This document shows, in pieces, positions 21,865 to 53,853 of a stretch of 64,000 nucleotides of DNA. Under the pieces are notes generated by a model that made no database searches, was not told the origin of the DNA, and saw nothing but the letters and a program-made list of their open reading frames with translations. Numbering within the stretch: position 1 is the first letter of the stretch; each line of letters starts with the position of its first letter. The translations under genes were made by a program, and so were the position numbers. Source of the DNA: Heterodontus francisci (Eukaryota); NCBI RefSeq assembly GCF_036365525.1, contig NC_090417.1:13927344-13991343 (forward strand), given 5' to 3'.

Positions 21865-24800
21865 TTATTTCCCAACACCTCCCTGGGCATGACAACTCAC
21901 AGAAGGATCATTCCTCTTGTGGATGTTGAACCGACAATTCTGACGGTCAAAAACTGCCACACAATCCTCTGGGTACATTTTTGGGGTGGTGTACCTGGAA
22001 AATCAAAGAGAAACAATGCAGAGCATGAAGAAGATCTGTCAGAAAGTGTTAAACGTGCTTTATCCTAGTTTTCATCTGCACTATCCATTCATCTCTTCAC
22101 CTACACTGTCCCTTCATTTCCATTAACATCATCCCTTCATCTCTTCATCAACCCCATCGCTTCATTTTCTCTTAAACACTGTCTCCTGCTGTGTTTCAGT
22201 GGGACTTCAGGCTTCTTCCCACTCCTCACACCCACTCTCCCATCCCAAACATTTCACCTGCAGAGAGTGCTGTGAACTGTTGACCAGTCGGCCAGTGCCT
22301 CGAATCCCAACCTCACCTCTTCCCAATTGTGAAACCATTGTGTACTGAGAGACAGTAAATCAATGCACCAATGTCAAGCTTATTGACCATCAGAAGAGAC
22401 TAGATAGCAAAATGCAAACCTTGCACTGGCTCAGTGTTTGTGCTCTGAAGAGCTTTGACCCTGTGCAAACTCTTTCAGTTGATTGGTTAGGAGTGTGGGT
22501 GTCACTCAAGTACTGGATCAATTTGTTCCTCTCCTGGTCCCGGCTTGATTTTGCAACCAGTTCAGCACAAATTAGACAGATCAAATTCTGCTGATCCAAC
22601 TTGACATTTTGTCTTCTGACCCACTCTCCCATCCCCCTTACCGCCCACTGCCCTCCCCCCTCGCCACCCCCGCCTCCGTCCCCAACCCTGTCCATTTTAT
22701 CGATCTTGCATCATCCAGGTTGCTTGTGTGATGTGTCAGGCTGTGACCTGTCTGGAGAAGACCAGAGGAAAGCAGCAATTGTGCCGTGTTTGCCAATCTG
22801 CAGACTGGCCTTGAGCTGACGCTTTATACCAAATCCACTTGGTGATTCAATAAGTAGCAGTCAAGGGTAAATGCAGCACTGCATCAGGGTTACGTCTGCC
22901 CGAAGCAACAGAGAGCCACTTACGTTGCACAACACCTTGCAAAACCAGGCAAGCACCTACATCTTATACAGTCAGAGTTTGTCCAGCTTTCCCCATTCTC
23001 ATGCCAGGTCCCATCAACGTGATCTCTGCATCTGTCGGAATCTGTTGGTGAGAAAGATAGAGATTCATCTGACAATGTCTCTTCAAAGAGTGAAAGGGTA
23101 CCATGGGGTAGCATTGATCTTGTGGGGCTCTCAGCAACTGGTCTGGGTCACTCGATTGTTTTAATTCCCGCCCTAGCACTGACCTGTTTGGAACTGGAAA
23201 AACGCCGGGTCTGTTCCCGAGCCAGTTGACCGGGCCTGGGTGTTGGGTGACCTTTGACCTGGGGTTTGCCTTGGCTGCCACAGGTCAGGATCCGGCTTGC
23301 CACCAGCTGGGATGTAATTTTAGGCAGTCTGCTGGAGGAGTGTCACCGTGGTAACCGCAGTTTGTAGGCCGGACTCTCATTTGCACCCAGCTGGACCAGC
23401 TCTGATGTAACTTGCCGGTTTGTGAAGCCAGGAAGTGGGCCCCACTCCTCCTTGCACCCTCGCTGGATAGGGAAGGGGAAGGCGATCCCTGAGGGAAGGC
23501 CTCATGTGGGCTAGGAGGATCACTCAGTTCCATCCATACTGGCAACATTCATTGGTTAAAACAGCTCTGGTATGATACACCCGGCCCCAGTCCTTAGTTT
23601 CACCACCAGGTCTTCAAGCAGAGTTTGGAACGATTCACTACGTACCACTCTCTGAGCCAGTCGTATAGCAGGCTGATTCTCCATCTTCAATAGCCAGGAA
23701 CAGCAGAGTGACACACACAAAGAATTTCTGTTGGGAGAAGGAAAGACCATCTTGAGGAATACAGTCATGTCACTTAGTTTACACTAATTCCCGGTCGGAT
23801 GCAAGTTCTTCACTCAGAGTGTTGTGAATATGGAAGAGACGCTTGGATGGGGACAGTTCGAGAGGATCAAGGTATAAGCTGAGAAGTGGTTTGGTCAGGG
23901 TGGTCTGTTTATAAAAGGGAGAGAAATGTTGAACCCAGTTACTTTCACCTGATGCAACACACCATCTGCTTGGGGATTAGCAAGGTAACATCTCTGTTCA
24001 TAACTCAACAGAATCGCAGCCGGGAGTTGACATATATTTTGAGGACAGAAGCATTCCGGGTGGGGTTCCCAATTCTCCAGCATTGTCCTGAAATCTATAG
24101 GAATGAATCTTCATGGCACGGCACTGCACTGCACGTGAGAAACATACAAATCAGGAGCAGGAATAGGCCTTTCTGCTCCTCGAGTCTCCTCTGCCATTCA
24201 ATAAGATCACAGCTGATCTGATTGTAACCTCATCTCCACATTCTCGCCTGCCCCTATTAACTTTTCACCCCCTTGCTTATCACGAATCTGCCTTAAATAT
24301 ATTTAAAGACTCTGCTTCCACTGACATTTGAGGAAGAGAATTCCAAAGACTCTCAACCATCTGAAGGAAAAGATTTCTCTTCGTCTCCTTCTTCAATGGG
24401 CGACCCCTTATTTTTAAGCATTGACCTCCAGTTCTAGATTCTCCCTCAAGAGGAAACATCCTTTCCACATCCACCCTGTTGAGACCCCTCAGGATCTTAT
24501 ATGTTTCAATCAAGCCGCCTCTTACTCTTCTAAACTCCAGCGGATACAAGCCTAGCTTTCCAACTTTTCCTCACAAGACAACCTGCCCATTCCAGGTATC
24601 AGTCTAGTAAACCTTCTCTGAACTGCTTCCAACACATTTACATCCTTCCTTAAATACAGTACACAGTGCTCCAGATGTGGTCTCACCACTGCCTTCTTGA
24701 ACCACGACAGTCCATGTGGGGTAGGTACACCCACAGTGCTGTTAGGAAGGGAGATCCAGGATTTTGACCCAGTGACAGTGAAGGAACGGTGATCAGTTCC

Positions 24801-27756: not shown

Positions 27757-28076
27757 NNNNNNNNNNNNNNNNNNNNNNNNNNNNNNNNNNNNNNNNNNNN
27801 NNNNNNNNNNNNNNNNNNNNNNNNNNNNNNNNNNNNNNNNNNNNNNNNNNNNNNNNNNNNNNNNNNNNNNNNNNNNNNNNNNNNNNNNNNGGGGGAAGGG
27901 AGGAGAGAAGGGGGGAAGGGNNNNNNNNNNNNNNNNNNNNNNNNNNNNNNNNNNNNNNNNNNNNNNNNNNNNNNNNNNNNNNNNNNNNNNNNNNNNNNNN
28001 NNNNNNNNNNNNNNNNNNNNNNNNNNNNNNNNNNNNNNNNNNNNNNNNNNNNNNNNNNNNNNNNNNNNNNNNNNNN
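27757..28076. other. Two N-runs (27757-27890, 27921-28076) within a purine-rich tract
   Basis: Directly visible gap or masking. Confidence 0.99.
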
Positions 28077-29899
28077 GGAAGGGAGGTCGGGGGGGAGCAG
28101 CGGAGCGGAAGGGGAGTGCCTTTTTCTGTGCATGCGCCATAAACACAAGGACTGGCTGATGAGATGGAGCCAATTAATTTGCCCAACAATTGCCCGGAAG
28201 CACCTTCGGATGGAGGTGGCCATGCGCTGGACATCAGTCGCGTGCCACAATCCATGGCTCCTGAGCGTTTCACCCCCTGGCCTAATGATCTGATGGACCA
28301 TACATACGCCTGCCTGTTCAAAGCTCCACTTCCCCTACCTGCGGTACCCTCTCCTTGCTGTTCAGTTACACAGTCACCTGTTCCTGCACCCATCCAAGCA
28401 GTGCACATGGACACACAGCCACATGTTTCCCCATCCGCCCTTGAAACTACCATGCAGAGCCTTGTGAGACTCCGCAATTGCCAGCTGCTGCCTGTCAAGC
28501 AGAGAAGGCGTCCAAAGGGGTCAAGCACTTGGGGAACATTCAGCAAGAAGAGACTGAGCACTAAAAGAAACAAGCATGCCGTGTCCAGTGGTAGCACAAA
28601 TGTGAATGCTCTTGCTGCGTACACAAGTGGTGAGGTGGGAGTGCAGCCACACCATTCTCCATCCTCAGTGTTGCTTTAAGGCAAAGGTAGATAAGAGTGA
28701 AAGAAATGGAAGATGATGCTGATAGTAGTAGGCAGGATTAAATGGGAATGGATGGGAAGACGCACGAGTAGCATAACCACTAGCAGGGAACAGCTGGACT
28801 AAATGGCCTGCTTTATGTTCATAGTCCAAAAGAAATGTGCTTCTTTTTCCAGCACCCTCACATCATTCATGTTTTCCCTGAGAGCAGCATTGAACCATCA
28901 CGAGATAGGGGCAGTAACATCATCCTGCCTCCTACAGCTGAGGTGGGAACTAAGTGATTCATTGGCCTATACTGCAGAGCATAAAGCATGCGCAACAGTA
29001 ATTTCATTGGAGGGAGGGAAGCTCTGACTCTGATTTGCTTTATTTCTTTTCATGTAAAACATGCCGTCGAGAAAACAATCCTCGAGACTTACGGTCAGCA
29101 TTCAAGCAACGAAGGCAACTGGATCATGCTGTGGAGCTCATCACGATGTGGAAAGGAACATTGCATTTATGGATGAATTGGGAATGCACATTGGGATGCG
29201 CTTGGGGAACATTCACCAAGAATAGACTGAGCTCAGACTCTTGTGACTTTGCCTTCTACACATGGACAATACAGTAGTGGAATAGAGAGCCAAGCGTTCA
29301 TTCACCACAAGGCTCTCCAGGAACAATCTCTTTAGCTGTGCATATCAGAGACTCGGCCTGTCTGTCTAACAGGAATGCTGGACACAACACTCATGTATCC
29401 ATGCACAGCAGTTCCTCGGATACTTAATGAACTTAATAAAACTTTTCAATAATTAAACCCAGAATTGTTGAGGTTTTGTTTTGCATGTTATTTCCCCAAC
29501 TTTGTAACTGCACTTCAGATATTCAACTATGGTGGAGGGGTGGAGGTAGGGGGGTAAAGGAGGGGTGGAGGTAGGGGGGTGAAGGGGGGATGGGTGAAGA
29601 GGGGGAGGGGTGGGGAGTGCGGGGAGGGGTGGGGAGAGTGAGCATGCAAAATGCAGGGACCAGACAGTTGCAATGCCTGAAGTACTGTGCAGAAGTAGAG
29701 AAAGCAACTGGATTGGGCATCCGCAGCTGGAGGGAAGGGCTGAATGGAGAGGGGCGGAAGCGAGAGGCCGTAGAGAGCCGCGGGGAGCGAGCGTGCGAAG
29801 ACCTTGGTGTCACCGGGTCCAGGGACTGGCCAGTAAGTCTTTTGCTGTTGTGTTTATAGCGCATGCACAGAAAAAGGCACTCCTCTTCCACTCCGCTGC

Positions 29900-30265
29900 T
29901 CCCCCCTCCACTCTCACCCCTTCTCCCCCCCCCCCCCCTCCACTCTCCCCCCCCCTCCCTCTCCCTCTTTCTCCCCCCTTCCCTCTCCCTCTTTCTCCCC
30001 CCTCCCTCTCCCCCCCCTCCCTCTCCCTCTTTCTCCCCCCCCTCTCCCCCCTCCCTCTCCCTCTTTCTCCCCCCCCCTCCCTCTTTCTCCCCCCCTCCCT
30101 CTTTCTCCCCCCCCCTCTCCCCCCCTCCCTCTCCCTCTTTCTCCCCCCCTCCCTCTCCCTCTTTCTCCCCCCTCCCTCTCCCCCCCTCCCTCTCCCTCTT
30201 TCTCCCCCCCCTCCCTCTCCCTCTTTCTCCCCCCCCTCCCTCTTTCTCCCCCCCCCCCCCCACCC
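29900..30265 (+). repeat. Polypyrimidine low-complexity tract (ctccctctttctcccccc)n
   Basis: Directly visible. The long G/E- and P/S-rich ORFs over it are artefacts. Confidence 0.95.
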
Positions 30266-31342
30266 CCGGCACCGCTACCGCTGGTCTCCCCCTTTCTCCC
30301 CCCCACCAGCACCGCTACCGCTGGTCTCCCCGCGCTGCTCTCCCCGGCCAGCTCCACTCTCTCACTCCGGCCATTGTATTCTGCCACGTGTTTGTCAGGT
30401 TTCATCTCTGTGATTTTTTGAGCAGCGCCATCTTTAGTCCTGGCAGCTGCGACAGTCGCAGGCTGTGACGTTTTCGTGGCACATGCTTTATCTGCGCATG
30501 TGCCAAAACAGCGCCACCTACCGATCGCGTTGTCAACAATTGCGGTCTTAAAAATAACGGGTCGCTCATTTAAGACAGAGATGATGAGAAATTGTTTCTC
30601 TCAGATAGTCGTGAGTCTTTGGAATTCTCTTCCTCAAGAGGAGGTGGAAGCAGAGTCTTTGAATATTTTTAAGGCAGTGGTAGATAGATTTGTGATAAGC
30701 AAGGGGGGGAAAGGTTATCGGGGGTAGGCGGGACTGTGAGTTGAGTTTCCAATCAGATCAGCCATGATCCTGTTGAATGGCAGAGTTGGCTCGAGGAGCC
30801 GAGTGGTTGAGGTGAATAGTGTCGATGTATTTAAGGGGAAGCTGGATAAACATATGAGGGAGAAAGGAATAGAGGGTTCTGCTGTTAGGGTGAGATGGAG
30901 AGGGCTGGGCGGTGGCTCATATGGAGCCTGTTTCTTTGTTGTAGATTTGATATAAAATCTGATTTCCATGAGTTCTCGCCTTTCACTTCATTTCATTTTC
31001 TTTTGAAATTAATTGTATAATCTGTCAGATCTGCAGGACAATGGTTGATTTTGACCTGAGACTTCCCATGACAAGGCATACTTCAATTCAGCAACTTTGT
31101 GGAGCAAGAAAGAAGCCCCTTCAGTGGCTTTGTGACCAACAGCAGGAACGAACTGGGAAGGAGATCTAAAGGGGGAGGGAATCTCCAGATAAATAGACTC
31201 CAGGATCTCATCACTGTGGAATTTGGGATCTGTCTTTTATTTTGTTTACATCGCATCAAGAATACAAGACTGGCAATTCTCAATGTCTTTCTCCATTGGA
31301 AGAGGGCCGCGTGTTTCATTCAACTCCTTCCCAAACAGTTTC

Positions 31343-34300
31343 TCACGTCTTACACACAATGGCAGGGTTGTTCCTCTTTTGGACCCTGTACCGACAATTC
31401 TCCCGCTCAAACACCGCGATACAATCATCTGGATAACTGGTCGGTGTGGAATACCTGGAATGTCAATCGGAAAACCAAAGGTCAGCAATGCAGAGCTTTA
31501 ATGACTTTCCAGTTAGCAAGGGTCAACTGTGCACTGTCCACTTTTCAAAAGAACAAGTGCTTCACTGCCTATCATCAGGGACGTTGTCTCCTTCATTTCC
31601 CACCCCCTTCTCCACCTTCTAATCCCCCATGCTTCCTGTCACAAAGTGGGGGCAAGTTTTCATGCCTTTAAAACAGCAGGTATAGACCACACTGCCACTT
31701 GAATCTGCTCTGCCATTTCAACAAGATCTTCCATCTTAAATCCACTGTTCCGCTCAGTCACCACATCTCCTCATTCCCTTCGTCTCCAAACATGAAGTGC
31801 ATGGAGTTGTTGAGTTCTGTGAGCCCCAAGGACATATCATAAGTTTACTGTGGCCTCACCTCCACAGTTTGAAATTCTTTAGCTTGTTCAACCCTCCTTG
31901 GGGATTCGAGCCATTTTGCACTGTGACCATTGGTGGTTAAACAGGAATACAGCAGGACAGCAGTTATTTTAAAGGACCAATAATACAGAGGCCTGGACTA
32001 TTAATCTATAGACATGAGTTCAAATCCCACCAAGGCAACTGGGGAATTTAAATTCAATGATTGAAATAAATCTGGAATTGAAAGCCACTCTCAGTAATAG
32101 TGCCATGAAATTATCATCGATTGTTGTAAAAAAACCCATCTGGTTCACTCATGTCCTCCAGGGAAGGAAATCTGCCGTCCTTACCTGGTCTGGCCTACAT
32201 GTGACTGCAGACCCACAGCAATGTGGTTTACTCTTACATGCTCTCTGAAATGGTCGAGCAAGCCACTCAGTTGTCTTCAAGAAGGGGGTTCACCCTCAAC
32301 CTCTCAAGAAGAGTTAGCAGTGGGCTAAATGGATCAGACATCGGCGTGCCAGCAATGACCACGTCCCCTGAATGAATTTAAAAACAAGTACCAAGCACTG
32401 CCAAGGTTCGTCCCGTGAATCTCTCTTCTCCATCCCATACCTACACATCATCACACTCTGCCGTCTTCTTCATGTGAGGTGTCTCCATTGCTGCTCGTCA
32501 CACCATTCCACATCTCAGACCTATGTGAGAATACCGCTGTGACTGGCTGGTAGAAGGCTGAAACCAGACTTTGCTGATAGCTCGGTAGGTAAAGACACAA
32601 TGGTGAGTTACTGGGTCATCCAGGTCAGGAAGATTCCATGTTCAGTCTCCGCCGCACTGTGCTGAGCTAGTTTATTCTGACCAAGGCAGCAGGTAGGAGT
32701 GTTAGAATTGTTCTCAGTCCACTTGGACCAGGCTGAGTTGCAGCTTTAGATTGTGGTGAGGAAATTCTGTTTTAATAAGTGTATATAGACATGGACTGAG
32801 ACCAGGATTGGATTCGACTGTGATGCCACATCCAGTCGAATAGCTTGCCAACAGTCATTGCCATCTGGGCTTCGTATTAATAATGTACTGGAATTCCACC
32901 AGCAGTGATGCACTACAGATAGCATGAGTTGGGCAAAAGGGTGGTGACGGTGAGGACGATTAAAGGAAAGCTGATACTTACACATCCCAGCATGCGACCA
33001 CTGTATGAAGGCATTTACATATCTGGCAGTCAGAGTTCCTCCATTTCGACCCTAGATTGTGCATCGTGCGATCAGTATGGTCCTTGCATCTACCTGAAGT
33101 CAAGAGGAAATTAGGCTTGAGTGTTTTTTGGAAGCTGGGACACTGTATCCGTGTGGATTGTGAGTAATGTGATGGTGAGATCGAAATAAGTGTTAGCAAT
33201 ATGCTGTGCATAAGTAAAACTAGGTACAAACCTTATAGCTCTGTACATTATTATTCTGATAAATACAGCCCCACTCAGCTTTGAAAAGGTGTAGGATATC
33301 ATTTCGAGTGTGATAATTCACAGTAAATTAGGATTCAAACAATATCTTCAGTCTGGAATTTAACTTTTGTTTGGAGAGCGTCTTTGTAAGATTAATCATA
33401 GAATTACACTCGAAGACAGGCCTTCAGCCCAACTGGTGCCTGCTGGTATTTCTGCTTTACACAACCTAAATCCCACCACTTCTTCATCTCACCTGATCAG
33501 TATATCCTTCTATTCCTTTCTCCCTCATCTGTTTATCCAGCTTCCCCTTAAATACATCTCTCCGATTCACCTCAAGCACTCCCTGTGGTAGCAAATTCCA
33601 CATTCTGGCCACTCTGTGGGGAAAGTGGTTTCTTCTGAATTCCCGATTGGAATGATTGGTGACGATCTTATATTGATGGCCCCTAGTTCTGGTCTCCCCC
33701 CCCCCCCCACTCCCACAAGTGGAAACATCGCCTCGACGTCTACCCTCTCAAACCCCTTCATTATCTTCAAGATCTTGATGAGGTCAACCCCAGTCAGCCT
33801 GCGTTTTTTTCTAGGGAAAAGTCTTCCCAGCCTGTTCCATGTATCCTGATAAGTTATAAACTGGAATCATCCTTGTAAACCTTTGTATTTGCGTCCTCTC
33901 CAGTGCCTCGATATCCTTTGTGTAATATGGAGAGCTGAGTGTTGAGGGTACACCAAGTGTGGTACAACCAAGAATCTAACCAGTTTTATCACATCTGGTG
34001 ATGTCTTGTGAAACACTAAGTGACAATCTACCCCAGCTGGCACTGCCTGCTTGCTCGTACGGAGGCCGGAAGTCTGCTCGAAGCCCCCAGTCCCAGGAGA
34101 GCCTCCCTCCCTAAATTCCTGAACTCCATGCAAAGGATTCAAAGACCCATGACTACTCACCAGAGTTTTTTGAGTAAATTTTGACAGCAGATTCCAGAAG
34201 AGCGAAGGCTGTGAGCAGCAAGACAAGACACAAGGTGACGTTCTGAAAACGAAACAGGCCAGGCCATGTGTTAATGGAAGTCAGATGATTGAATGGTTCC

Positions 34301-36481
34301 AGCACAGAAGGAGGCCATTCGGCCCATCATGTCCGTGCTGGCTCTCCGCAAGAGCAGCTCGCCGACTGCCATTCCCCCCCAGCCTTTCTCCCCAGATACC
34401 TGCAAATTCTTTCTCTTCGGATAGTTCCCCAATTCCATTCTGAAGGCCTCGATTGAATTTGCCTCCACCTCACTCTCAGTCAGTGCATTCCAAATCCTAA
34501 CCACTCGCTGAGTAAAAAAGGTTTCCCCCCTCATGTCGCTATTGCTTCTTTTGTCACTCACCTGAAATCGGTGTCCTCTGGTTCGATATCCTTCCGCCAA
34601 TGGGAATAGTTTCTCCCTATCTCCTCCGTCCAGATCCCTCCTGATTTTGAACACCTCTGTCAAATCACCTCTTAATCTTTTCTCCAAGGAAAACAGACTC
34701 AGCTTCTCCAGTCCAGCCACGTAAGTGGTGGTTGGAGTGGGTGGGGGCGGTGGGACTGACTGGATTGCTCCGCGGAGAGCCGGTATAGACTAGATGGGCT
34801 GAATGGCCTCTTTCTGTGCTGTAAGTGACTCTCTAACTTCATGACTTTATGAATCTATTCTGCATCCTCTCGAATGCCTTTACATCCTTCCTGAAGTGGA
34901 GTGCCCAGGACTGCATTTTGTGGAGACCAAACCAGTTTTTTGTATAGGTTTATCATAACTTCCTTGTTTTTGTACCCATGCCCCTCTTTATAAAGCCCAG
35001 AATCCCGTATGTTTTATTTACATGTGAGAGCAATGCCCCTGGCTGCTGAGCTTGCCTGGCCCGAGCAAGAGGAATAAATGTGATCTGCAATTGGGAAAAT
35101 GCTGGCAAACTCCTCGACTTCTATTTCCCCTCAGTGGAGAGGAATAAATAGACATTATTTCCTCCAGACAGACCTTCAAAATTACACTGTGGAAAAACAC
35201 CATCCAAATTCTTCATCCCTTTCATCTGGAGTTTCTTGGTCCAGGGTTTGAATCGGAGGCATGAACCTGTCTAAAATAAATGGTGAAAGTTCTCAAGCGA
35301 AATGGTAGCTTCCATATTGCTGTCCATTTCGATGGTTTGGGCTTCTTAACAGTCCTTAGTGATCTCATAGGGTCTCAGTAGAAGCAGATTCTGCTTCCAA
35401 ACCTTCTCCAGCAGAGCTGCAAACGCTGAGAGATAATGATTCCTACCCTCCTCTAACTCGTTCACTCTATTTCACCAGAGGTGTCCGATACTACCAAACT
35501 CTCAGAAGCACTGCATGTAACAAAGGACTGCAGACTGAAGCAATCAACATCTTTATTGTTGAGATTTATCGAACAATACAATTCAGCCAGCAAACAGCAA
35601 GTGCTTCAGAAACATAGGAACGAAAAGTTCCACCACGGGTCGACAACCCTTCAGAAACACTTGTTTTCAGATTGTACACCAAGCATAACTGGAAATTCAG
35701 TGGAGAAGATTCTGGCAGTTTGAGCCTAGTTCCAGCATCTCCGAGGCCCTGATACAGCTCAAGAAGAGAATATGAGGGAACATTTGTTATCTTGCCCAGG
35801 AATTGCTTTGCAACAAACTTTTTACATCTTCACTGTCAACCCAACCCTCATCACCTCCTTTTAAGAAAAGAAGATTCTGTGGCGACATTAATCTTCATGC
35901 AGTTTGAAAACAAGAAATAACTGGGGCACAAGTGCAGTGTGAAAAGAACTCATCTCGTGTGTCCTGTGGCGCAGTGGGCAGCACTCTTCCCTATTAGTCA
36001 GAAGGTTATGGATTAAAGTCCCACTGGAAAATCTAGGCTGATTTTCCCAGTGCTGGTACTGAGGGAGATGATGTCTTTGTGATGAAATTGAAGAGCTCGC
36101 GATCCTTTCAGTGGCTCTATGTCAAAGAGAGCAGGGGGGGTGGGGGGTTCTGGACAATTTTTTATCCATCAGCCACCAGCTCAAAAAAAACAAATGACCT
36201 GGTTATGATCAGAATGATATTTATGGGAGCTTGCTGTGCACAAATTGGCTGCTGCATTTCATGAATTACAATACTTCAAAAAGCATTCATTGGTTGCAAA
36301 GTGCTTTGAGCGTCTGAAAGGCACCCGATGAAAACAAGTGTTTCTTTGGATAGATACGAGTATGCAACAAAAAAAAACCAAACACAATCAGCCTTTCCAA
36401 TGAACGTCTGACAAAGTTAAATTGAAGAATTGCTTTCTCATTATGAGGTGAAATGTATGAGAAAATCTGCATACATACCAT
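31343..36481 (-). CDS. MSMB: Beta-microseminoprotein-like protein, paralog C (102 aa, 8 Cys); complement(join(31343..31454,32982..33093,34161..34242,36479..36481))
   Basis: An ATG|gtatgt micro-exon and exons of 82, 112 and 112 nt with canonical splice sites give MNVTLCLVLLLTAFALLES-AVKIYSKNSGRCKDHTDRTMHNLGSKWRNSDCQICKCLHTVVACWDVYSTPTSYPDDCIAVFERENCRYRVQKRNNPAIVCKT*. It is a clear paralog of B at DNA and protein level. AATAAA lies at 31236-31241 (-). The symbol denotes family. Confidence 0.9.
31985..32385 (+). mobile_element. tRNA-derived SINE whose 3' tail resembles the LINE end at 15575-15660
   Basis: B box gagttcaaatccc. Tail ttcaagaagggggttcaccctcaacctctcaag aligns by eye to the LINE sequence ttcaagaaggcaactcatcaccacctcctcaag. 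Confidence 0.65.
33395..34000 (-). mobile_element. Degraded CR1 3' fragment in intron 2 of paralog C
   Basis: KIMKGFERVDVEAMFPLVG motif and a CR1 tail. Confidence 0.75.
34290..34720 (-). mobile_element. CR1 3' fragment
   Basis: LFSLEKRLRGDLTEVFKI...FFTQRVVRIWNAL. Confidence 0.85.
35965..36340 (+). mobile_element. Deu-domain SINE
   Basis: tRNA head tggcgcagtgggcagcactc and core gggagcttgctgtgcacaaattggctgc. Confidence 0.7.
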
Positions 36482-37279
36482 TGCTGCAACTGTCTGACCA
36501 GAAGTCTGTTTCCTCAGTGAGAAGGAGAACTGCTGGCTTGTATTATTCGCTCTCAGCTTTACTCCAGACTATCGCACAGGTCGTACAGGGGAAGTCGCTC
36601 AGGTAGAATCAGCAGCTGCCAGAAATTGCCACGAATGCTTGGTTTGTTGAGTTTTGTGATCATAAATATCGAAAATGTAAAGCAGATGCCAACTGTCTGA
36701 TTTTTGAAGAGTTTCCTGCTTGTAGCTCATGATGGGAAAAGTGAGAAAGGTGTCAATCATCAAGTGTTTCGATTCCCCTTTGGTCAGTCCAGAAGTGACG
36801 CCACAAACCTACCCTTGTCTCCACCTTTATCCTGCACCACCACCACCCCCCCCAGCCCAAGCTCCAGCTCCTGGTTGGAACTTGGCAGAAGGTGCCAAGT
36901 TTACACAGTGGAGTCAGTCAAGCACAACGACTTCTGAAATGTGTCGTTTCTCAAAGGACTCTCCACAATGTGAGTCTCTGAAGAGGAACTGAACTGGGAA
37001 CAGATTGGAAAAACTGGAAAGGGGGACGCCTGTTCACCTGGAAAGAGTCCTGCTCAGGTACAGATTGCAAGTTAACTCGTCTTAATAATCGGTTATTGTT
37101 TTTGGATGAAGTTCCTGATCAAAATCAGGAAGCTGTGCATCAAGTGAAATCTTTTTTGTGAATTCACATGGTCCCACAAATGAATACAGTTCGATCAGGC
37201 CTGGTATCAAGGAAAATCATCTGGAAAGAATCACAAGGGGAAGACAGGGAGAGATTTGATCTCCATAATCCTTTGCCAC

Positions 37280-37880
37280 AACAACAAAAATTTGTATTTA
37301 TCGAGCACCTTGAACATACTCAAATGTCCCAAGGCGCATGCACTGTGTCGTATCAGGTGATGTCAGAGCAGATGAACAAAATCTTGGTGAAAGAGTTCAG
37401 TTTGAAGGAAAGTCTGAAAGCGAGGTGGAGAGGCGGACAGATTTAGGGATGGTGGAGAGGTTAATATCAGGGATGCACAAGAGGCCAGAATTGGTGGAGC
37501 GCAGAGATCTCGGAGGCTTGTGGGGCTGCAGGGAATTACAGAGATGGAGAGGGGATAGGCCATGGAGGTATTTGAAAACAAGGCCGTAAATGTTTCAATT
37601 GAGGCATTGCCATACCAGGGAGTCAAAGCAGATCACAAGCAGGGGTGATAGGTGAACTGGACTTGGTGTGAGTTAAGACACAGGCAGCAGAGTTTTGCTT
37701 GAACTCAGGTTTAGGGAGGGTAGAATGTGGGAGACCAGCCAGGAGTGCATTGGAATAGTCAAGTCTAGAGGTAACAAAAGCATGGATGAGGGTTTCAGCA
37801 GCAGGTGAGCTGAGCCGGAGCGATGTTACAGAGCTGGAAATAGGCGGTCTTAGCGATGGCGCATCTATGAGGCTCAATCA
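37280..37880 (-). mobile_element. L2 LINE 3' fragment
   Basis: AAETLIHAFVTSRLDYSNALLAGLP...QNSAACVLTHTKSSSPITP is the canonical L2 ORF2 C-terminal motif set. Confidence 0.9.
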
Positions 37881-38184
37881 ACTCATGTACAATTAACTTC
37901 CTTTGAGATCATGGAACCATACAATCTTACAGCTCAGAAGGAGCTGTCAGGTGAAAAACTTTGTGTCAAAACTTTTCACCCAGAGAGTTTAGCAGTGATG
38001 TTTTTCTGGTAAATTCTTCATTGTGTCTTCTCTTTCAGTCAATCAGCAACATATGCAGTTGAGGTAATGAGAAAGATGTGCCCAGAGAATCACTGTTCAG
38101 ATCCCCAGTGGACAACCATTGATGTCTACAGCAGACAAAGGAAGTCATTCACCCCATTCAGGGACTGTGCTGACTCTTGATTTC

Positions 38185-38610
38185 AAGGCCTTTCACAATT
38201 CAGGACATCTCAAAGTGCTTGCCAGCCAATGAAGTCGTTTAGAAATGTAGTCACTGCTTTAATGTATGAAACATGGCAGCCAATTTATGCACAGCAAGCT
38301 CCCACAAACAGCAATGAGGTAAAGGATAAATAATCTTTTTGGTGATATACTGGTTGAGGGATAAATGTTGTGCAGGGCACCAGGGAGAACTGCCCTGCTC
38401 TCCTTCACAATAGTGCCATGAGATTCTTTAATGTGCACCTGAGAGGGCAGATGGGCCTCAATGTAACATCTCATCTGAAAGAGGGCACCTTTGACAGTGC
38501 AGCACTCCCTCAGTACTGCACTGCCGAGGTTTTGTGCTCAGGTCTCCGGAGTGGGTCTTGAACCCACAACAATCAGATTCAGAGGGTAGAGTGCGAACTC
38601 TGAGCCATGG
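38185..38610 (-). mobile_element. Full-length Deu-domain SINE
   Basis: Head catggctcagagttcgcactct...gggttcaagaccc, Deu core and tail. Confidence 0.8.
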
Positions 38611-39014
38611 CTGATCAGCCAATGCCCAACACTGGGACAGGTTCGAACCAGAGAAGAGGTTTTTCTCTCCACCCCAGTCTTTGTGTGGAACTCTTCATTG
38701 CGACAATGCCGATTGCTGGTTCAATTGCTTGGCCTAGAATGGTCATGCAGCTTCTGCACTGGCCATCTCGATATGGGATGCACTATTCTCCAGATCACTG
38801 AAACTCCTCATACCTCAAGTGAAGCCACAGATTCAAACCACATCAACCACTTTGCTGAAACTGGGAATCATAAGCTGCTGACCTACTTTTTAACAAAGCC
38901 ATCTAATGATCATCTGCACACTGTAACTTACACAGAGCACTCATCACAGCATCTCTTGTGAAAGACAGTGAATTTCCCCTTCCATGCTCTACAGTGCTGT
39001 TGCATTATCCTTAA

Positions 39015-39665
39015 ATCATAGAAATACAGAAAAATAGGAGCAGGAGTAGGCCATTCGGCCCTTAGAGCCCGCACTGCCATTCAATACGATCATGGCTGAT
39101 CATCCAAACTCAGTAACCTGTTCCCGCTTTCTCCCCAAACCCCTTTTTCCCGAAGAACTATATCTAACTCTTTCCTGCATATATTTAATGATTTGGCCTC
39201 AGCTGCTTTCTGTGGTCGAGAATTCCACAGGTTCACCACTCTCTGGGTGACGAAATCCCTCCTCATCTCAGTCCTAAATGGCTGACTGTGACCCCTGGTC
39301 CTGGACTCCCCCGCCATTGGGAACATCCTTCCTGCATCTAGTCTGTCCAGTCCTGTTAGAATTTTGTAGGTTTCTATGAGATCCCCTCTCATTCTTCTAA
39401 ACCCTCGTGAATACGAGCCTAATCGACCCAATCTCTCTTCATACGTCAGTCCTGTCATCCCAGGAATCAGTCTGGTGAACCTTCGCTGCACTCTCTCCAT
39501 AGCAAGAACATCCTTCCTCAGATAAGGAGACCAAAACTGCACACAATATTCCAGATGTGGTCTCACCAAGGCCCTGTATAATTGCAGCAAGACATCCTTG
39601 CTCCTGTACTCGAATCCTCTCGCATTGAAGGCCAACATACCATTTGCCTTCTTAACTGCCTGCCA
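39015..39665 (-). mobile_element. CR1 3' fragment
   Basis: QAVKKANGMLAF...LVRPHLEYCVQFWSPYLRKD. Confidence 0.93.
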
Positions 39666-41034
39666 GCTTCCTTTTCTTGAAAACATTGAAGGGCAAGAGG
39701 CAAGGTACTAACCCTCCCAAAGGCTTACAACACGCTCAGACGATATCTGAACACTGGCAGTGACAATGACCCAAGTTTTATCCTGCCTTGCATCAATCAG
39801 ATGATCTCAGCTTGAGTCAGTTATCGAGCCTCCAGGAATGGCTTGGAGTCTTCAAGGCTTGAATATTCATCTCCAGGACACTGATGCAAGCATTGATACA
39901 ATATCATTGGAATTGAAAAACAGTTGTGTTTTTTTTTTGTATCAATTTCTTCTGATTCAAGTGTTGGAGAAGGGAAAACAAAGCTGTTTGACTAACAGGC
40001 AGGAATTGTCTAATGGGTGAATGCTTTGGCTTGTGAAGGCAACAAGTCAGGCAGCCAATGGAGGGAGTGCAAGGCGGGGCATTTGACAAAACCGCCAGGA
40101 ATACATCCAGGTGGAGTTGGCAACCCGAGCCCCAAGAGCCACGGCACGTTGTGGTCAGTTTAGGAACGGCATGTGGAGACCAACTGGCATGGGCTCACAT
40201 AGAACAAAAGGAGCTGTGCACTCGATGAGGCAAAGGGGCCGTTTCTGTGCAGGAACATTTCCCAGTTACAGAAGGAGCGGCACCAGAACCAGACAAAAGT
40301 GGCCATTTAACTTGTCCCTGTTGGTGGCACCGCAATATGGCTGCCCTGTTCTGTCACGACACCACTTAGTGCACGTCAGAGGAAGAAGTGAGGAGAGATT
40401 TATTCACACCCAAGAGTGTTAAGATGTGGAACACACCAGTGGATTCAAATTCAATCAGGCATGCACTGGAAGAGGTCTAACTTGCTAGGTTTGGGGGGGG
40501 AAACTTGGGTAAGTGTGAGAAGTTGTGACATGAAGTAATAGTCAAAGAGATTGAAGGAAAAACCTTGATACGGAGGCATGGTTTTAATTTCACAAACTGC
40601 TTTCTGAGTGAGGTCCACTCGGTTCATGAAAATGTGATTTGATTCCCGTGTTACCAGACGAGACCACTTTGGATATGTTGCTAATTTTAGCCAGGCCCCT
40701 TTAAGAGGCTGGCCCTCTGTGTCTGTTTTAGTTTCGATAGGATATTGTTGACTTAATTTTCAAGGGCAGTGTTGTTTGTCCCTCTGATGTGTAGTCCTAC
40801 TTGCTGTTAGGAGATACAAGCCTCCCTTTGTTGTCTATCTGCTTGAGTTGGGAGTATATTTCAGTGTCACATGTATTCCCTCTCTGTAACTGCTAACACA
40901 GAGACTCCCTTGCTCCTGTGCAAACCTTGTTTGCTCCTCTGTGCTTTCCAGGACATGCCCAAATTTAGTACAAATGATGCGCTCAAAAACACTTGGATCA
41001 TTCCTCATCACAGCTCACAAATCTCCAACATCAG

Positions 41035-41235
41035 CAAAATACTGCAGATGCTGGAAATCTGAAATAAAGACAGAAAGTGCTGGAAATGCTCAGCAGTTCT
41101 GGCAGCACCTGTGGAGAAAGAGAGAGACAGAGTTAATGTTTCAGGTCAGTGACCCTTCATCAGATTTAACGGTTAAAGCTGAAACATTGGCTCTATTTCC
41201 CTCTGCTGAATATTGCCAGAATTTTCTCTTTTTAA
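41035..41235. mobile_element. Penelope-like-element-derived short inverted repeat with a degenerate hammerhead ribozyme core
   Basis: Minus strand 41137-41163 reads CTGATGA agGGTC act GACC t GAAAC. Imperfect inverted arms flank ~41170. Confidence 0.5.
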
Positions 41236-42874
41236 CACGAATATTCAAAGTGGTTCACATGGACTGATCATTATATTGGTAAAGGTTGCAGCAAAGTGCC
41301 CCAGATATTGGCTCAGGGATGAATGCTGGGCCACAACACTGGACAGACTCTCTCTTTTCTGCTCCTCTTCATTTCATGCGCTGGGATTTCTTCACCTTTC
41401 AGCTGAAAAGGCAGACCGAGGCTTGGGTTAATACCTCAGCAAAGGAAAGCAGCACTGACAATGCAGCACTCCCTCAGTGTCACCCTCGATTGTCAGCATG
41501 GCCTCGATTTGTGCCTCACATCCATTAACTTCATTCAGAGACAGAGAGTCGGGCCAAATGATGACTCCTCCTCCTCCTCCTCTTCCATCAATCATCATCA
41601 GGTTCAGTCCTTGTCTGTCCAAAAACAGAAAAGGAATGTTTTAGAGCATAATGGGCTGATCCTCCGTGGGGTTTAGATGAATGAGGTGATTGTTGTGTGA
41701 TTGTCTTTAAGAGTGATGTTCCAGGACATAGTCATGTGACTACATGCTAGTGTAAGAGGTTCCATTCCTGTACTCCCTTACTGCAGTTCTTGGACTTTGG
41801 GAATTACAAAAACAAAATTGGGTTACAACACAGGGTTGGGCTGAACCACAAATGAGTTTATTTAAAAAAACACAAAAGCCCTCCTAACACCCTCGAAACT
41901 AATTTAACGGAAACAACATGACACTTTAATTGGGTAGTCTGATTTCAATCCCTCTACGATTTAAACTCGGCACTCACCCAAACACACAAGTCCCCATGAT
42001 GTATAAGAGAAACCTTTACGGGAAAAAAAAACCACAGTCAAAACCCCAAATTCTGCCCCAAATTCACTCAATTCGAAACCCAAACTCTCCCAGGATTTGG
42101 TTGCTACACTTAAAATTCTTTTATAACTCTCGGCCCCAAATACCCCTTGGATTTGGCTGATAATTTACAATCCTCCATGCGATTGGACTTCTGGTGAGAA
42201 TTGTAGCTCCACGAGCCAGGTTGACTGTTCCTGACCCTCTTTCTCGACTGCAGCCCCCACAGTACAAACCCCTTCAAGATTTGACTGAAAAACTGACAAT
42301 CACCCTCATTGCTGGTCATTACTAATGTTGATTGTAGGCCTGGACTTGAGATGACCAGTCCCTGTTCTTCTTCCCATAACTGCAGTGCCAAACCCTTCGA
42401 TCTTGTCCCTTTTATGATGATCCTTATCGAAATATCATGAACGCATCTCCTGAAGCCATCCTGCTGGATGGTCAGCACTTAGCACCTTTTAATCTCTTTC
42501 CTCTGTTACCTGCCCCTGGTCCAGACAGATCCATTGAGTGCCGATGTGATTTCCCTGACCGAGAACAATGAACTTCACCAAGATGAGATAATCCAGGCTC
42601 CAAAGCTAATATCCATGAACGAGGCTTTCCTCTGTGGTGCAGGGAGATCCCCACTGCAAAAACAAGCATGAGAAATCCTGCATCGGTCGACAGTGCTGCA
42701 GATTGTTTGAAAGTGCAAGTCCATTGAGGTAGCTGTCAGGAAAGAGGACAGGCAGGAGGTGATACTGGGGTCTGGGAGCTTGACACACGTGATAGACCAC
42801 TTGAGATTTGCTCTGACTTTGGGCAGAAGACAGCCTCTGTCTACTATGAGTAACAAGATCACAAACGTATGACA

Positions 42875-43730
42875 TAGGCCATTCAGCCCCTCGAGCCTGC
42901 TACGCCATTCAGTTACATCATTTATCTCAACTCCATTTCCCTGCTTTCGCTCCATATTCCTTGATATCCTGATCCATCATAAATCTGTCAATCTCAGTCT
43001 TGAAAAGTCCAATTGTCATTTAGCATCCACAAACAACTGAGGGCCAGAACTCCAGATTTCCACTCGTCTTTCTGTGATTTCCCTCCTCAATGGCCTGGTT
43101 CTGATTTGAAGACGATGTCCCTTGTTCTTGATTCCCCCACTGCCAGACTGAATGGTTTCTCTGTATCCAAGCCACTGAATGCTTTTCACATATTCTACAC
43201 CTTGATCAGATGACCACTCAGCCTCCTCTGCTCAAGGGAATGCAAGTTTCAAGTCCCAGTTCTATCCCGGCTCTCTTCATTTCCCCCAATCCAATGTGCC
43301 GCTTCAGTGTGAGAACACGCAGAGATGCACGTTGTGTAGGAACTGTTGCACGGCACCTCCGAAACACAATGAGCCGTTGAAAAAAGGTGGGCTGCGGTCG
43401 AGTGGGCTGGGATGGGGGAAGGCTGATTGTGGATCATCACTTGCAAGTTCCCAACTTTTTCTGGATCAGGGGTTTGGCCCTCGCTGGAGAACTGTGGACA
43501 CCACATTTCAAGAGGGCTGCCAAGCTCTGGAAGATGGTGCAGAAGAGATTTATGAGAATGGTACCAGGGATGAGGGACTTCAGTTAGATGAATAGACTGG
43601 AGAGCAGAGAACTTTAAGAGAAGATTTGTGAGAGGTATTGAAAATCATGAAGGGTTTGATCGAGTGCACAGAACAAACTATTTCCACTGGCTGAAGGGTT
43701 GATCAGCAGAGGACACAGATTTAAGATGAT
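42875..43730. mobile_element. Two degraded CR1 fragments (minus ~42875-43265, plus ~43480-43730)
   Basis: taggccattcagcccctcgagcc tail and VQKRFMRMVPGMR motif. Confidence 0.7.
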
Positions 43731-43764
43731 CGATTTGAAAACAACAGAAACAAGAAAGAAAGAC

Positions 43765-44135
43765 TTACTTTTTCATGGCGACTGGATATCTTAAAGTGCT
43801 TTAAAGCCAATGGAGTGCTTTGAAATGTAGTCACATTTCAAGGAAGTGCAGCTGCTGAATTGCACACAGCAAGATCCCACAAACAGCAGATTGATGTGTT
43901 GATTGAAGGATAAATATTGAGCAGAGCACCAGGGATAAGTCAGCTGCTCTCCTTTGAAATAGGACCATGGGATCTTTAACATCCATTCAAGCAGGCAGGT
44001 AGGGCCTCGGTTTAACGTCTCACCTGAAAGACGGCACCTCCGACAGTGCAGCACTCCCTCAGTACTGCACTGGGAGTGTCAGCCTGGATTTATGTGCTCA
44101 AGTCTCCGGAGCCTTGTGACTCGGTGTTGCCCACT
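43765..44135 (-). mobile_element. Deu-domain SINE, with a partial inverted twin at 44685-44807
   Basis: Deu core gcacacagcaagatcccacaaacagca. Confidence 0.8.
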
Positions 44136-45574
44136 GAACCCCAGACACAGAAGAACCAGACACCAGATAAGGAAAGTCCGTTATCCGATGAGAGTTATGG
44201 TCTGGAATGCACTGCCTGGGAGGGCAGTGGGACCAGATTCAGAAGGAACTGTCAAAAGGCAATTGGATAAATAGTTGAAGGGAAAATTTGTTATATCTGG
44301 GGGGAAGGGGCAAGGAAGTGGGACTAAATTCGACATGCTGGAAGAGGCACGATGGGCTGAATGGACTCCCTTTGCAGTGTATCATTCTATGATTTGATGA
44401 GATGGAGTTTCTGGTTAAAGCCGTCGCAGTGGGGACACATTGGGTAGGGGGTGGAGTCGGAAATGGGATGGACATGGGGTCTGTTTGACGCACCAACTGG
44501 CAGAGGTGCTCCCAGAGTGGCAGGGTTGAAGCATGACACCTGCTTCCTTTATAGCTGGAGCACGGAGTTGGGAAGAGATCGGGAGAAAGTGGAGCATCCC
44601 CCTCAACAACTTGCTGCAAGAGGACAGAGCGTGTAAAGCAATGGGACCAAATTCCATCCTTGGTCACAGCTTTCTGACACAATGCAGGCTGACACTCCCA
44701 GTGCGGTACTGAGGGAGTGCTGCACTGTCGGAGGTGCCGTCTTTCAGATGAGACGTTAAACCGAGGCCCTACCTGCCTGCTTGAATGGGTGTTAAAGACC
44801 CCATGGTACTATTCCACTGAGGGTGTGAAGCAATGATTCACTCCCAGCAATAGCTCTCTCTTTTTTCTCTCTCCAGGGAGACACCACAGGCTGCTCCACA
44901 GGGATTGGAAGTGCAGAAGGGGACTTCTCCCCCCCTCCCTCAGTCTGTCAGTTCTGCTTTTCTCCTGCAGAAGCTGCATCTTCAGGAGGAAACACCACAG
45001 GGGTTGCATCTGAGATAGAGGACAGCTCTGCAAAACCAATCTGGAATGCTTCGAACTCTTGTGCCAGTCTGAAACTGGCACAGATGGCTGGGCAGATGGG
45101 CAAGATCCCCCTGATAATCCCAGCCTTCTCTTGAGGGAGGCCGGTGAACATGTTGCCTTGTGTTGGACATGAAACTCTTTTCAGATCTCGGGTTGGAGGC
45201 TATTTTCAGCAAAGGAAACGTTTAACTGTGAGCCTGTTCCATCCTCTCTGACATGACAGCAACAAGATTGTGGTGGCTGTTTTAAAGTGCACTTCTCCAC
45301 TTTCTCTGCACCTTGTTGATCATTGTCGCCCCGTGACAGACTGGGCTTTTTTTTTTCTAGCAGCTGCTGTGAACAGTTAGCAATGCAACATCCTGAGGAA
45401 CTGGTGAGAGCGATGCTGTGGCAGATATCACCTCTCACACGTCCTGACATGCAAATCGTGTTTGCAACAATTTGCAATTCTATTTTTCATCTTTTTTCTG
45501 AGCAGAAATGTTTTGTTGAAACAAAACGACGGCGTTGCATTTGTGCCTTTTGGTTCCTGTGTGTCAGTGGGTAT

Positions 45575-45725
45575 TAATCTGTGTGTGTGTGTGTGTCTTT
45601 AAATCGCACCAGGAGCCGTCTGTCATTGTCTGCACTGGGACTCCGCCCTACCTCTCGCTGATTGGTCCAGCCTCCTCATTGTTACTTTGAGAGCCGATGG
45701 TCTCCTGCCGCTGATTGGCCGGTCG
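45575..45725. promoter_or_regulatory. Candidate promoter: (GT)n, TTTAAA, GC box (ctccgcccta) and two NF-Y type CCAAT boxes (gctgattgg)
   Basis: Motifs at ~45641, 45657-45665 and 45710-45718 in repeat-poor, CpG-retaining sequence. No target gene identified. Confidence 0.45.
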
Positions 45726-48700
45726 GTCCATCAATCATCTGAAATCGCCACAGTTCTGCTGCCTCATTCAAAAGAAACGCGAGCCCATGGCCAGGGCTTT
45801 TATGAAGGAAGTGCTTGTGGAGTGGGCTGTGTAATCGGGGTAGCAGTTTGGAGCACCGATGGAAGGAAGAGGCTTTTAACAAGGCAATAAAGGTCAGAGA
45901 AATCTTCTTTCCTCTTTCTCCTCTCACCCCACTCCACTGTTTCATGACTGGGTAGAACAGATGCAGACAAGACACTGCTCCCTTGTGTTGCTGTCTGGCT
46001 GTTTTGCTTCTCTTCAGTCATCAAGCTGTCTTCAGAAAAGCAACGACTTGGCTTGAAAGGGACTGAACCCCACTGATAAATTCACGCCCCTGACCAGGAT
46101 TTTTGCTTTTAAACAAAAAGTCGGGGGGGAAATCAGTTTTGGTCACAATGAGATGGACTGCTGCAGTAGTCAAGGGTGGATTGGTGCATTTTGTTTCTGC
46201 TGGGGAAGGAATCATGCTTCGGGTAGTCATAATCACTGGGATCATGCTGTGTGAGGACAGCATCCGATTGGGAAACATGCCCCCTTCCCCCCAGTATTGG
46301 AACAGGGCTTCACTGTCTCAGCTCATCCATGGAGAATGAGCAGTGGAGTGAGCTGAAGAGAGAGAGAGGTTTGTTTGAAGGGTGTTTGAGGAACTGTCCC
46401 CTCGACCGCAGCCTTAAGGATTAGTAGGGTGGTTTGGAGTGGGGGAGAGATGGAGTCCGGAATGCCAATCCCATCACTGGAGTAATCCCAGAAAAACTCC
46501 TGGTTTTCCCCAGCAGCGCTGTCATTCAGTGGCACTGCTCCCAGTCGAAGTCTTTGAAAACAGCATCAGCTTTGAGCCAGCTCCACAAGTTTTAGCCTCA
46601 CTGTGCCGTGAAATGTCCTATTCTTATTTTTTTTTTAAATCTTTTTTCTCAAAAGCAACAGCTGCTTTCTGCATTTTGTGCCTGAATTGTCTCTGAGGTG
46701 ATTAGGGTCAGTCTTTTACACACTGCTACAGTTCCTCTTGCAGTTTGTTCTGGTGCTGGCATCGGGACTTGTGCAGATACTGCTACTGTCAGGGGAGCAG
46801 CAATTGTTGGAGGAAGCAGCAGTTTGATCAAACACAGATGGAGCTTTCAGTGATCGCCCCACATGCCTGACTGGTCATGATTCTGGTGCTTGAAGAACTC
46901 AGGCCTTTCACCCCATTGCCAGGCTCTGTTTCTGGACTGTTTATTGGGTCCTGTGTCTTCTTTTCTCAAACCCATTCCATCTCCTTTTTATTAAAAAAAA
47001 CCCCCTCTGTGTTGCCTGTCTTTGCTGCACCTTTTTTGGGATCATAATTGTGGCTCAGCCACCCACACACTTCCTTGTTTGGCCTCTTTGCAGAGTGTTT
47101 CAGCCAGCTTCTCCATCGGCATCACAGCTGCAGGCTGTCGCTGCCTTCTGTAAACAGCCCAGAGAAAGCAGTTTGAGTGCCCGCTCCAAGTTCGCCTCCT
47201 GGTTCTTCTGCTAACTGGTTGCTGGTGGACCTAGATGGTTGGTACATGGATAGATGCCAAGAAGTGAATGGTGGTGGAATGGAGAGATTGAGACTCCAGA
47301 GGAAGGATTTTGGGGCAACAGAGAGCATACAATGCAGATTGACAAAGATGCTGCCTGGTTTGAGGAAATGTGAAGGATTACAGGGTGATCTGCTCTTTTA
47401 TGGTGTTTACAATTCTGAGGGAATGGTACAGATAGATAGAAACAAAGTGTTAGCAGTGAATGCTGGCTCCAGAGTGTGGGGACACAGATAGGAGATGAAA
47501 TATCACTATATTAGAAATGATCAGGACAGAGAATGGGGACAAGGATGTTTAGACTGAGCATTGGTGGTTGTGGAAAGCACTCCTGGAGGTGATTGAAGCA
47601 GAGATTATCAATCTTTTAGGGAGACATTCAAGAGATGCCATTCAGGGGATGTTAGAACGTGGGATTTGGCTTATACTCCGGCCCAGCATAGACTGCTTGG
47701 ATCAAACAGCCAGTTCCCAATATTGTCACCTCAGTGAGATTCAACCGGACACAAATGCAAAAAGGACATTGCCGTCAGTTTGCAATCCCGGGACCCCAGG
47801 GTCAGTTTACAGCCTTGAAATCCCTCCAGGAAATGGATCCAATCTCGGCACTCCATTTCACAAGAGTGGGACAGGTCCGATGGGCTGAATGGCCTCTTTC
47901 TACACGATAAGACTCCATGATTCTCAGTGGAGCTTTGGCACACCGACATCTGGTCTGTGGGCCCCACATGCTGTGGGGCAACCCACTACTGGGCCACTCC
48001 TGGATCCCTTGTCGATGGAAGGTTGTGAGCACCACTGGTTTGGGAAAGATCAGACAGCCGATCCTGATCGCTGAGCTTACTCTTTCACTATATTACCTTT
48101 AATGCACAGGCTCCAACACAAAATCAAACACTTTTTAATAAAACCACTTCTGATTGTCAATGACGCACACTGCGATGATAATACCATCACTGCACACTCG
48201 TTGAACACGAATTCACAACCAACCAATAGAAACAGACAGTGCACACAATGGAGAGCAGGCAGCATGCATTGTATCAAGCTGCGGGACCTTTGAGACAGAA
48301 TTTCAATGTGGTTCAATGTCAGCAAGGAGGTGACAAATGACTTGAGGGATTCCAACCATCACGCTGTCCCTCGGGAGCTCTCCCTACTTCATTTAAACAT
48401 CACTGGATGGGCAATGTGCAAATCATCATTTGTTTGCACCGATTGAGCAAGAGGAGGTTTATTTTTTTCAAAAAGAAAAGCCAGTACAAATCTGCTGAAA
48501 CAGCTGGTCTATCTGGGACTGTAAAACAGCATTGCTGAAATGAAATGGGCACCTTTCACAAATCTGGTCTGACAGAGGAAGTTCCCCAGTGGGTTGAGTG
48601 CCAGGTGCAGCTGGGATAGTTCGTTGCGACAGAGGTCACACAATAGCAGTATTGTCAAGTTAAAACGCTGACTCCTTTCACCAAATGAGGATGTGAAATT

Positions 48701-49059
48701 CTGCTGTGTTCCTCCATCTGCCGTTAGGCTACAGGATCTCTTCTTCCTCCTCTGCCTTGCCTTGTCGGAAGTAACTTCATTGTTGGTGTCAGTGAGCTGT
48801 GTGTGGCTCTCTTCGCCTGCCTGACCACAGGCTCTGTTACTGAATGTGATTGTGTCCTTGGACACGGTACATGGGGTCTGGTAGCAGAGTAGCTAAAGAT
48901 CTGTGCTGTGCAAAGTGTGTCGGTGGTGCATTGCATTATCTCACACGACTGAAGCAGGGAGTGCAGACACATAGTGATACAGTTTCCTGCCACTGGTCTT
49001 GTGACACAAGTTCCTCTTTTGAGGGCTATCTACTTGCAACAAGATGTATAATGATTCAA

Positions 49060-49330: not shown

Positions 49331-49331
49331 A

Positions 49332-53748: not shown

Positions 53749-53853
53749 TGGGGTATAGATTAAATTGTCCTTGACAGAGGACAAAGGATCGGCACAACAT
53801 CGTGGGCCGAAGGGCCTGTTCTGTGCTGTATTTTTCTATGTTCTATGTTCTAT

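Follow-up and report, generated by a model that had tools for sequence, protein, structure and literature searches.

A Shark Beta-Microseminoprotein Paralogue Lacking the Cys2–Cys50 Pair in Heterodontus francisci

Genomic Organisation of the Locus

The window (the whole 64-kb stretch of Heterodontus francisci, horn shark, DNA that was analysed) contains three tandem genes of the beta-microseminoprotein (MSMB, PSP94) family, designated A, B and C. Genes B and A lie downstream of gene C, and each of them encodes ten cysteines in the mature part. A six-frame profile scan of the window revealed no fourth MSMB-like gene. The features of the locus are as follows.

36695–31227, minus strand: gene C, a beta-microseminoprotein relative, 4 exons
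36479–36695, minus strand: gene C exon 1, 5′ UTR up to the start ATG (36481–36479), then a GT donor (X5, X6 and X7 contig pieces, sequence)
34161–34242, minus strand: gene C exon 2, signal peptide (assigned by homology) and strand beta1 (sequence, contigs)
34183–34185, minus strand: Val codon GTC where the family has Cys2; the two orthologues have Leu (sequence, contigs, alignment)
32982–33093, minus strand: gene C exon 3, completing the Greek-key N-terminal domain, with 5 Cys (sequence, contigs)
32987–32989, minus strand: Trp codon TGG where the family has Cys50; the two orthologues have Arg (sequence, contigs, alignment)
31343–31454, minus strand: coding portion of gene C exon 4, giving the C-terminal domain with 3 Cys; the stop lies 2 residues past the last Cys (sequence, contigs)
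31325–31345, minus strand: stop codon at the Trp column of the orthologues, then 3′ UTR in gapless register with gene B's coding tail (alignment)
31236–31241, minus strand: gene C polyadenylation signal AATAAA (sequence; contig ends at 31227–31234)
21865–23727, minus strand: paralogue B, ten Cys, full tail, exons 23646–23727, 22924–23041 and 21865–21994, exon 1 not located (sequence)
3222–7682, minus strand: paralogue A, ten Cys, short tail, exons 7598–7682, 4433–4535 and 3222–3333, exon 1 not located (sequence)

The MSMB and USM-homologue lineages are described as separable by synteny, the former with a FAM21/ARID5B group and the latter with an ARID5A group (PMC3268785). No flanking protein-coding gene was recognised within the 64-kb window. 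Between genes B and C, the regions 27757–28076 and 29500–30330 contain two gaps of the assembly as well as a low-complexity tract rich in purines, inside two similar-looking stretches. Upstream of gene C (45021–49147), several RNA-type contigs of runs X5 and X7 fall on unique sequence (45347–45892 and 48249–49147), where no gene was identified. Long open frames of a CR1/L2-type LINE occupy positions 49929–53750 of the plus strand in three consecutive frames, with esterase-like, endonuclease and reverse transcriptase motifs recognised by eye. The end of the window (54471–64000) is a satellite in which a 53-base unit is repeated about 180 times, with 94% matches and a strong GC skew.

A close orthologue of gene A, about 80% identical by eye, occurs in the sawshark Pristiophorus japonicus and also ends right past the last Cys. 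Gene A is highly conserved for an MSMB and has a long tree branch; its two RefSeq isoforms are explained by a NAGNAG acceptor at 7682/7685. Gene B (end at 21865–21880) and many fish members terminate in Gly-Lys, an ending that C does not have and that presumably resembles a C-terminal amidation signal. The chicken MSMB3 paper records, without explaining it, that the terminal Gly is lost and about 1 Da is missing per chain, and amidation would account for both.

Structure and Family Membership of Gene C

Gene C is an intact, spliced shark paralogue of beta-microseminoprotein. Exons 2 to 4 are all bounded by AG and GT and give a single open frame on splicing. Translation of the spliced frame gives exactly RefSeq XP_067879144.1 (beta-microseminoprotein-like isoform X2, Heterodontus francisci); the first-exon form giving isoform X1, with one extra Arg, was not located in the window. 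An earlier note on this DNA had missed exon 1 and the shortening of the C-terminal tail. The mature protein comprises 83 aa, beginning with the Ala that precedes the Val, and has a pI of 9.0.

The protein matches Pfam PSP94 (PF05825) with 49.9 bits (gathering cut-off 22, E 4.8e-13). It features an N-terminal hydrophobic stretch, a precursor length within the range of about 100–115 aa usual for the family and, by the spliced contigs, four exons; it would be a secreted protein. The predicted fold consists of a Greek-key N-terminal domain and a two-stranded C-terminal domain, and the top four Foldseek matches of this model were all MSMB-family structures (E 2.5e-8 for PSP94). The gene has already been automatically annotated as beta-microseminoprotein-like, and it represents neither a new fold nor a new pathway. 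With human PSP94 (MSMB; PDB 3IX0; PF05825) it shares the four exons, the first coding exon consisting of the ATG only, eight of ten Cys in register and the predicted two-domain fold. Unlike PSP94, to which it is 28% identical, C has neither the Cys2–Cys50 bond nor strand beta10, ending 2 residues past the last Cys, and its pI is 9.0 versus 5.4.

Transcript and Assembly Check

Four of the 15 listed runs, all from one sample, were compared as assembled contigs with positions 30400–50000. Runs X5–X8 were guessed to be RNA, none being recorded as such, and the case for a transcript stands on the spliced contigs. Record 16 of X6 is composed of four pieces (36479–36598, 34159–34242, 32979–33091 and 31227–31451), with 0 differences across exons 2–4. 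Record 9 of X5 and record 21 of X7 contain the first and last pieces and a 197-base middle, which is the length of the two inner pieces of X6. Spliced contigs of gene C were thus present in all three RNA-type runs compared, from the one sample, and since three introns are removed in them at GT-AG sites, the transcript is spliced.

In the DNA-type run X1, record 2 spans the Trp codon with 0 differences and record 3 spans the Val codon with 1 difference in 622 bases, its place unlisted. The possibility raised in the earlier note that either codon was an assembly error was thus checked. Because a spliced contig carries both codons, an error of assembly and a silent relic are both excluded. The stop codon of horn shark C at the Trp column of its orthologues might be taken as a sign of a pseudogene or of faulty assembly; with both codons in spliced contigs and the same losses in orthologues, we give this explanation almost no credence.

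Loss of the Cys2–Cys50 Pair

The Val (GTC) and Trp (TGG) codons reported earlier at two Cys positions were verified on the minus strand, and eight Cys are left. In the crystal structure of chicken MSMB3, the disulfide partner of the first Cys is the doublet's second Cys (C2–C43), and this bond connects beta1 to beta6 (PMC8167871). The doublet of human PSP94 is C49–C50 by alignment, its second Cys being C50. The two lost residues were hence correctly identified as the disulfide partners Cys2 and Cys50. The canonical member of the family has ten Cys and five disulfides; C has 8 Cys, with Cys2 and Cys50 absent, and is therefore classed as a variant and not as a canonical MSMB. Four disulfides would be expected in it.

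Two random losses among ten Cys strike one bonded pair with a chance of 1/9, so that the partnership of the lost residues is weak evidence alone. The argument that the paired loss marks a selected variant is accordingly weak as far as pairing goes, whereas the occurrence of the same loss in two other sharks supports it strongly. The Ala-Val codons (34183–34188) contain a Cys codon in a neighbouring frame, and an A-run occurs later in the same exon. By its sequence, the first Cys might have been lost through a compensated frameshift; the suggestion is a weak one, because every Ala(GCT)-Val pair shows such a Cys codon.

Rarity of the Variant

A profile-free search of 1.84 billion representatives yielded 139 matches, and 15 cartilaginous-fish proteins were added. 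The alignment consisted of 148 rows (147 proteins and B); 14 entries, namely long multidomain matches, isoform duplicates and fragments, were excluded. The CC-doublet motif was matched in 137 of the 148 rows. The 11 rows off the motif comprised three proteins of the C clade, two with the doublet behind a longer loop, five apparently partial or mis-spliced models and one from opossum. Only the C clade was without both Cys2 and Cys50 among the 148 family members. A signal-like hydrophobic stretch was present in 94 rows; of these, 89 had both features, 2 lacked both, 2 lacked the first Cys only and 1 lacked the doublet only. The two rows without both are horn and bamboo shark, the zebra shark protein being below the hydrophobicity cut-off. 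The MSMB model P0136 of the opossum Monodelphis domestica keeps Cys2 and has Ser at Cys50, which leaves one unpaired Cys.

The ten Cys are described as conserved in the family (PMC8167871; PMC7150969). The exception in print is marsupial USM, with eight Cys by C-terminal truncation (PMC3268785), the sole such member found in the open-access literature. USM shares the number of Cys with C; however, it truncates the C-terminal domain and keeps three N-terminal disulfides, whereas in C the C-terminal domain is retained and the missing bond is an N-terminal one. No account of a shark eight-Cys variant was found in the open-access literature, and the variant is apparently undescribed so far.

Orthologues, Phylogeny and Age

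Proteins of two orectolobiform sharks, the zebra shark Stegostoma tigrinum (P0004) and the bamboo shark Chiloscyllium punctatum (P0005, whose gene model carries a large insertion following exon 3), show Leu at Cys2 and Arg at Cys50 and keep the other eight Cys. The check for orthologues sharing both losses, which the earlier note had called for, thus gave a positive answer, with three species in all. The identity to C is 60/83 and 59/83 in the mature part (71–72%) and 7/19 and 11/19 in the signal region for zebra and bamboo shark, respectively.

The phylogenetic tree was constructed with 41 rows chosen by the analyst, representing cartilaginous fish and outgroups. The horn, zebra and bamboo shark proteins form a single clade with support of 100/99 and a branching order as in taxonomy; the deeper branches, the sister group of the clade included, were without resolution. 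The stem of the clade is 0.62 long and the root-to-tip distance inside it is 0.13–0.33. This combination of a long stem and short tips fits a burst of change after duplication, followed by constraint. Horn and carpet sharks are placed in separate orders, and heterodontiform fossils go back to 180 Ma (PMC7614348), so the paired Cys loss probably predates about 180 Ma. No C-type protein was found from catsharks, basking shark, sevengill shark, rays and chimaera in searches that were word-limited or clustered at 50%, for which reason the missing hits are no proof of absence. The open frame, the spliced transcript, the shared losses and the shape of the clade bear out the view of a selected four-disulfide variant as opposed to a decaying pseudogene, and C is likely to be an ancient working variant.

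State of the First Strand

The earlier note had proposed a released N-terminal strand. Our results point the other way: the strand is conserved to the same degree as the remainder of the protein, hydrophobic and modelled in place, in a model biased by ten-Cys relatives, and it is probably retained. Ala1, Ile4, Tyr5, Ser6 and Lys7 are common to the three orthologues, which makes five of the first seven mature residues invariant, and 37 of the remaining 64 non-Cys mature residues are invariant too. Six ten-Cys control triplets gave N-terminal invariance of 4/6, 1/6, 1/6, 1/6, 2/6 and 3/6; these triplets were analyst-chosen, with small numbers and orthologues mixed with paralogues, and two of the six reach 3/6–4/6.

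The AlphaFold model of C obtained with 108 sequences has a mean pLDDT of 89, with a strand at residues 21–25 and a pLDDT of 87 for residues 21–30; its packed beta1 may be imposed, because the alignment consists almost entirely of ten-Cys proteins. With the three clade sequences only, the pLDDT was 51, too low to be informative. Residues 20–102 of the model superimpose on residues 1–89 of PSP94 with Z 10.7 and rmsd 1.8 Å (81 aligned), and the model superimposes on chicken MSMB3 with Z 10.8 and rmsd 2.7 Å (81 aligned). A homodimer prediction for mature C, with the alignment not used, scored 0.00, which speaks neither for nor against a dimer.

Beta1 would still be paired with beta6, Val/Leu lying opposite Trp/Arg, and the bulky replacements of both lost Cys can presumably pack across the strands. 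The opposite reading is a first strand that is truly released, as a free arm zipping onto the beta-sheet of a partner or swapping between monomers. The lost bond is the sole covalent tie of beta1 to the sheet, beta1 is the edge strand that binds CRISPs, and its conservation would suit a binding motif as well, so that the conserved N-terminus could be a free binding motif instead. However, the replacements at both ends of the bond are bulky and strand-favouring, beta6 retains an invariant Val-Ala ahead of its Cys and the model, for all its bias, keeps the strand. We consider true release improbable.

Charge and Possible Antimicrobial Activity

The count of 14 K/R versus 8 D/E in mature C given in the earlier note was confirmed. 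The description of A and B as about neutral fits B (11 versus 12, pI 6.4); A is mildly acidic (11 versus 13, pI 5.0). The net charge of the C-type protein is +6 in horn shark, +2 in zebra shark and about +6 in bamboo shark. Among the complete ten-Cys rows, the charge is zero or below in 21 of the 23 cartilaginous-fish paralogues; the median over all 97 such rows is −2, and 10 of the 97 are at +6 or more, which makes charge independent of the disulfide loss. In the N-terminal domain, the net charge is +4 in horn and +3 in zebra shark versus −3 (B), −4, −3 and −1 in four ten-Cys shark paralogues. The C-terminal domain has a net charge of +2 in C, the same as in B. Judged from the sequences, the charge gain is modest and confined to the N-terminal domain.

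The fungicidal activity of PSP94 resides in residues 61–80, in the C-terminal domain, and PSP94 was not antibacterial (PMC3320615). Chicken MSMB3, with a pI of 9.3, is antibacterial via heparin-binding sites (PMC4904793). Charge is a poor predictor in this family, since human PSP94 is fungicidal at a pI of 5.4, and with the C-domain charge of C the same as in B and the fungicidal segment located there, the charge does not point to the mechanism of PSP94. An antimicrobial or membrane-binding role of C, which the earlier note had connected with its charge, is no more than a possibility on the sequence evidence.

In its fuller form, this explanation makes C a cationic antimicrobial or heparin-binding egg or mucosal protein, convergent with chicken MSMB3 (PDB 6RWC), with the disulfide loss as a side effect of remodelling the N-terminal domain. 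The positive charge of the clade against a background of neutral or acidic cartilaginous-fish paralogues agrees with it. Horn, zebra and bamboo sharks all lay eggs, and MSMB3 is egg-white specific, has no ordered beta10 and, like C, is cationic, lineage-conserved and encoded in a three-gene tandem cluster. MSMB3 differs from C in having all five disulfides and in being more basic, and of the two only MSMB3 is known for egg-white expression and antibacterial activity. Against the explanation, the zebra shark protein has a net charge of only +2, ten-Cys members also reach +6 or more, and the domain that harbours the fungicidal segment in PSP94 is without charge gain in C. The transcript in three RNA-type runs of one sample is a weak hint against one-gland expression. 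On balance we regard this explanation as rather unlikely.

Shortened C-Terminal Tail

Two residues follow the last Cys in horn shark C, compared with 4 and 6 in the orthologues and a median of 7 in ten-Cys members. The Trp codon of the orthologues corresponds to TGA in horn shark C. Downstream of this stop, the bases can be aligned gap-free with the coding tail of B, and the shortening is therefore considered derived; by this alignment, the 3′ UTR stretch after the stop is likely a relic of the lost tail. Dimerisation of PSP94 requires strand beta10 (PMC8167871, PMC3268785). C does not possess the beta10 strand for the edge-to-edge dimer of canonical MSMB, and since this strand is cut, a dimer of the PSP94 type would not be expected. 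Short tails also occur in 10 of the 97 ten-Cys members, gene A among them, and hence are not peculiar to C.

The frequency of short tails agrees with tolerated drift in a redundant paralogue that does the job of B, e.g., CRISP binding, with no gain of function. MSMBs evolve fast, opossum P0136 has lost Cys50 alone, and snake SSP-2 binds CRISP though its C-terminus is short. A long stem with short tips and a charge reversal confined to one domain nevertheless fit a functional shift better, and drift appears to us very unlikely.

Proposed Function and Significance

We consider it somewhat probable, a little better than an even chance, that C is a folded, secreted four-disulfide binding protein with a new ligand at its remodelled cationic N-terminal domain. 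Tandem duplication would have been followed by one burst of change, after which the protein would have stayed conserved over some 180 million years or more, and the first strand would stay packed through hydrophobic residues in place of the disulfide. The beta1 edge of PSP94 and SSP-2, together with the last strand, binds CAP/CRISP proteins (PMC8857485, PMC7150914), and a changed ligand at this edge is for that reason the most likely outcome. In C, both ends of the CAP/CRISP-binding edge, beta1 and the last strand, are altered, and the domain bearing beta1 has changed the sign of its charge. Shark CAP proteins are candidate partners, as are acidic proteins or glycans of mucosal or reproductive secretions. 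Snake SSP-2 resembles C in its N-terminal Ala and short C-terminus (Z 6.8 against the C model); SSP-2 binds CRISP via beta1; the habu SSP paper describes the ten Cys as conserved (PMC7150969), against eight in C.

In a bolder scheme, these sharks would have made a novel type of ligand out of an MSMB: the untied CRISP-binding strand would be a beta-zipper arm, released under certain conditions and borne by a cationic domain, in egg or mucosal defence. It would add a third case, independent of bird MSMB3 and marsupial USM, in which a trimmed MSMB came to protect eggs. We offer this as a speculation with a small chance of being right.

The value of C lies in the comparison that it affords. In a family that evolves fast and whose functions are debated, nothing but the ten Cys is nearly invariant. 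C has probably been without the beta1–beta6 disulfide since at least the Jurassic, beside its ten-Cys sister gene B, and the two genes provide a ready-made comparison, which would inform the role of the bond and of the beta1 edge in folding, dimerisation and CRISP binding.
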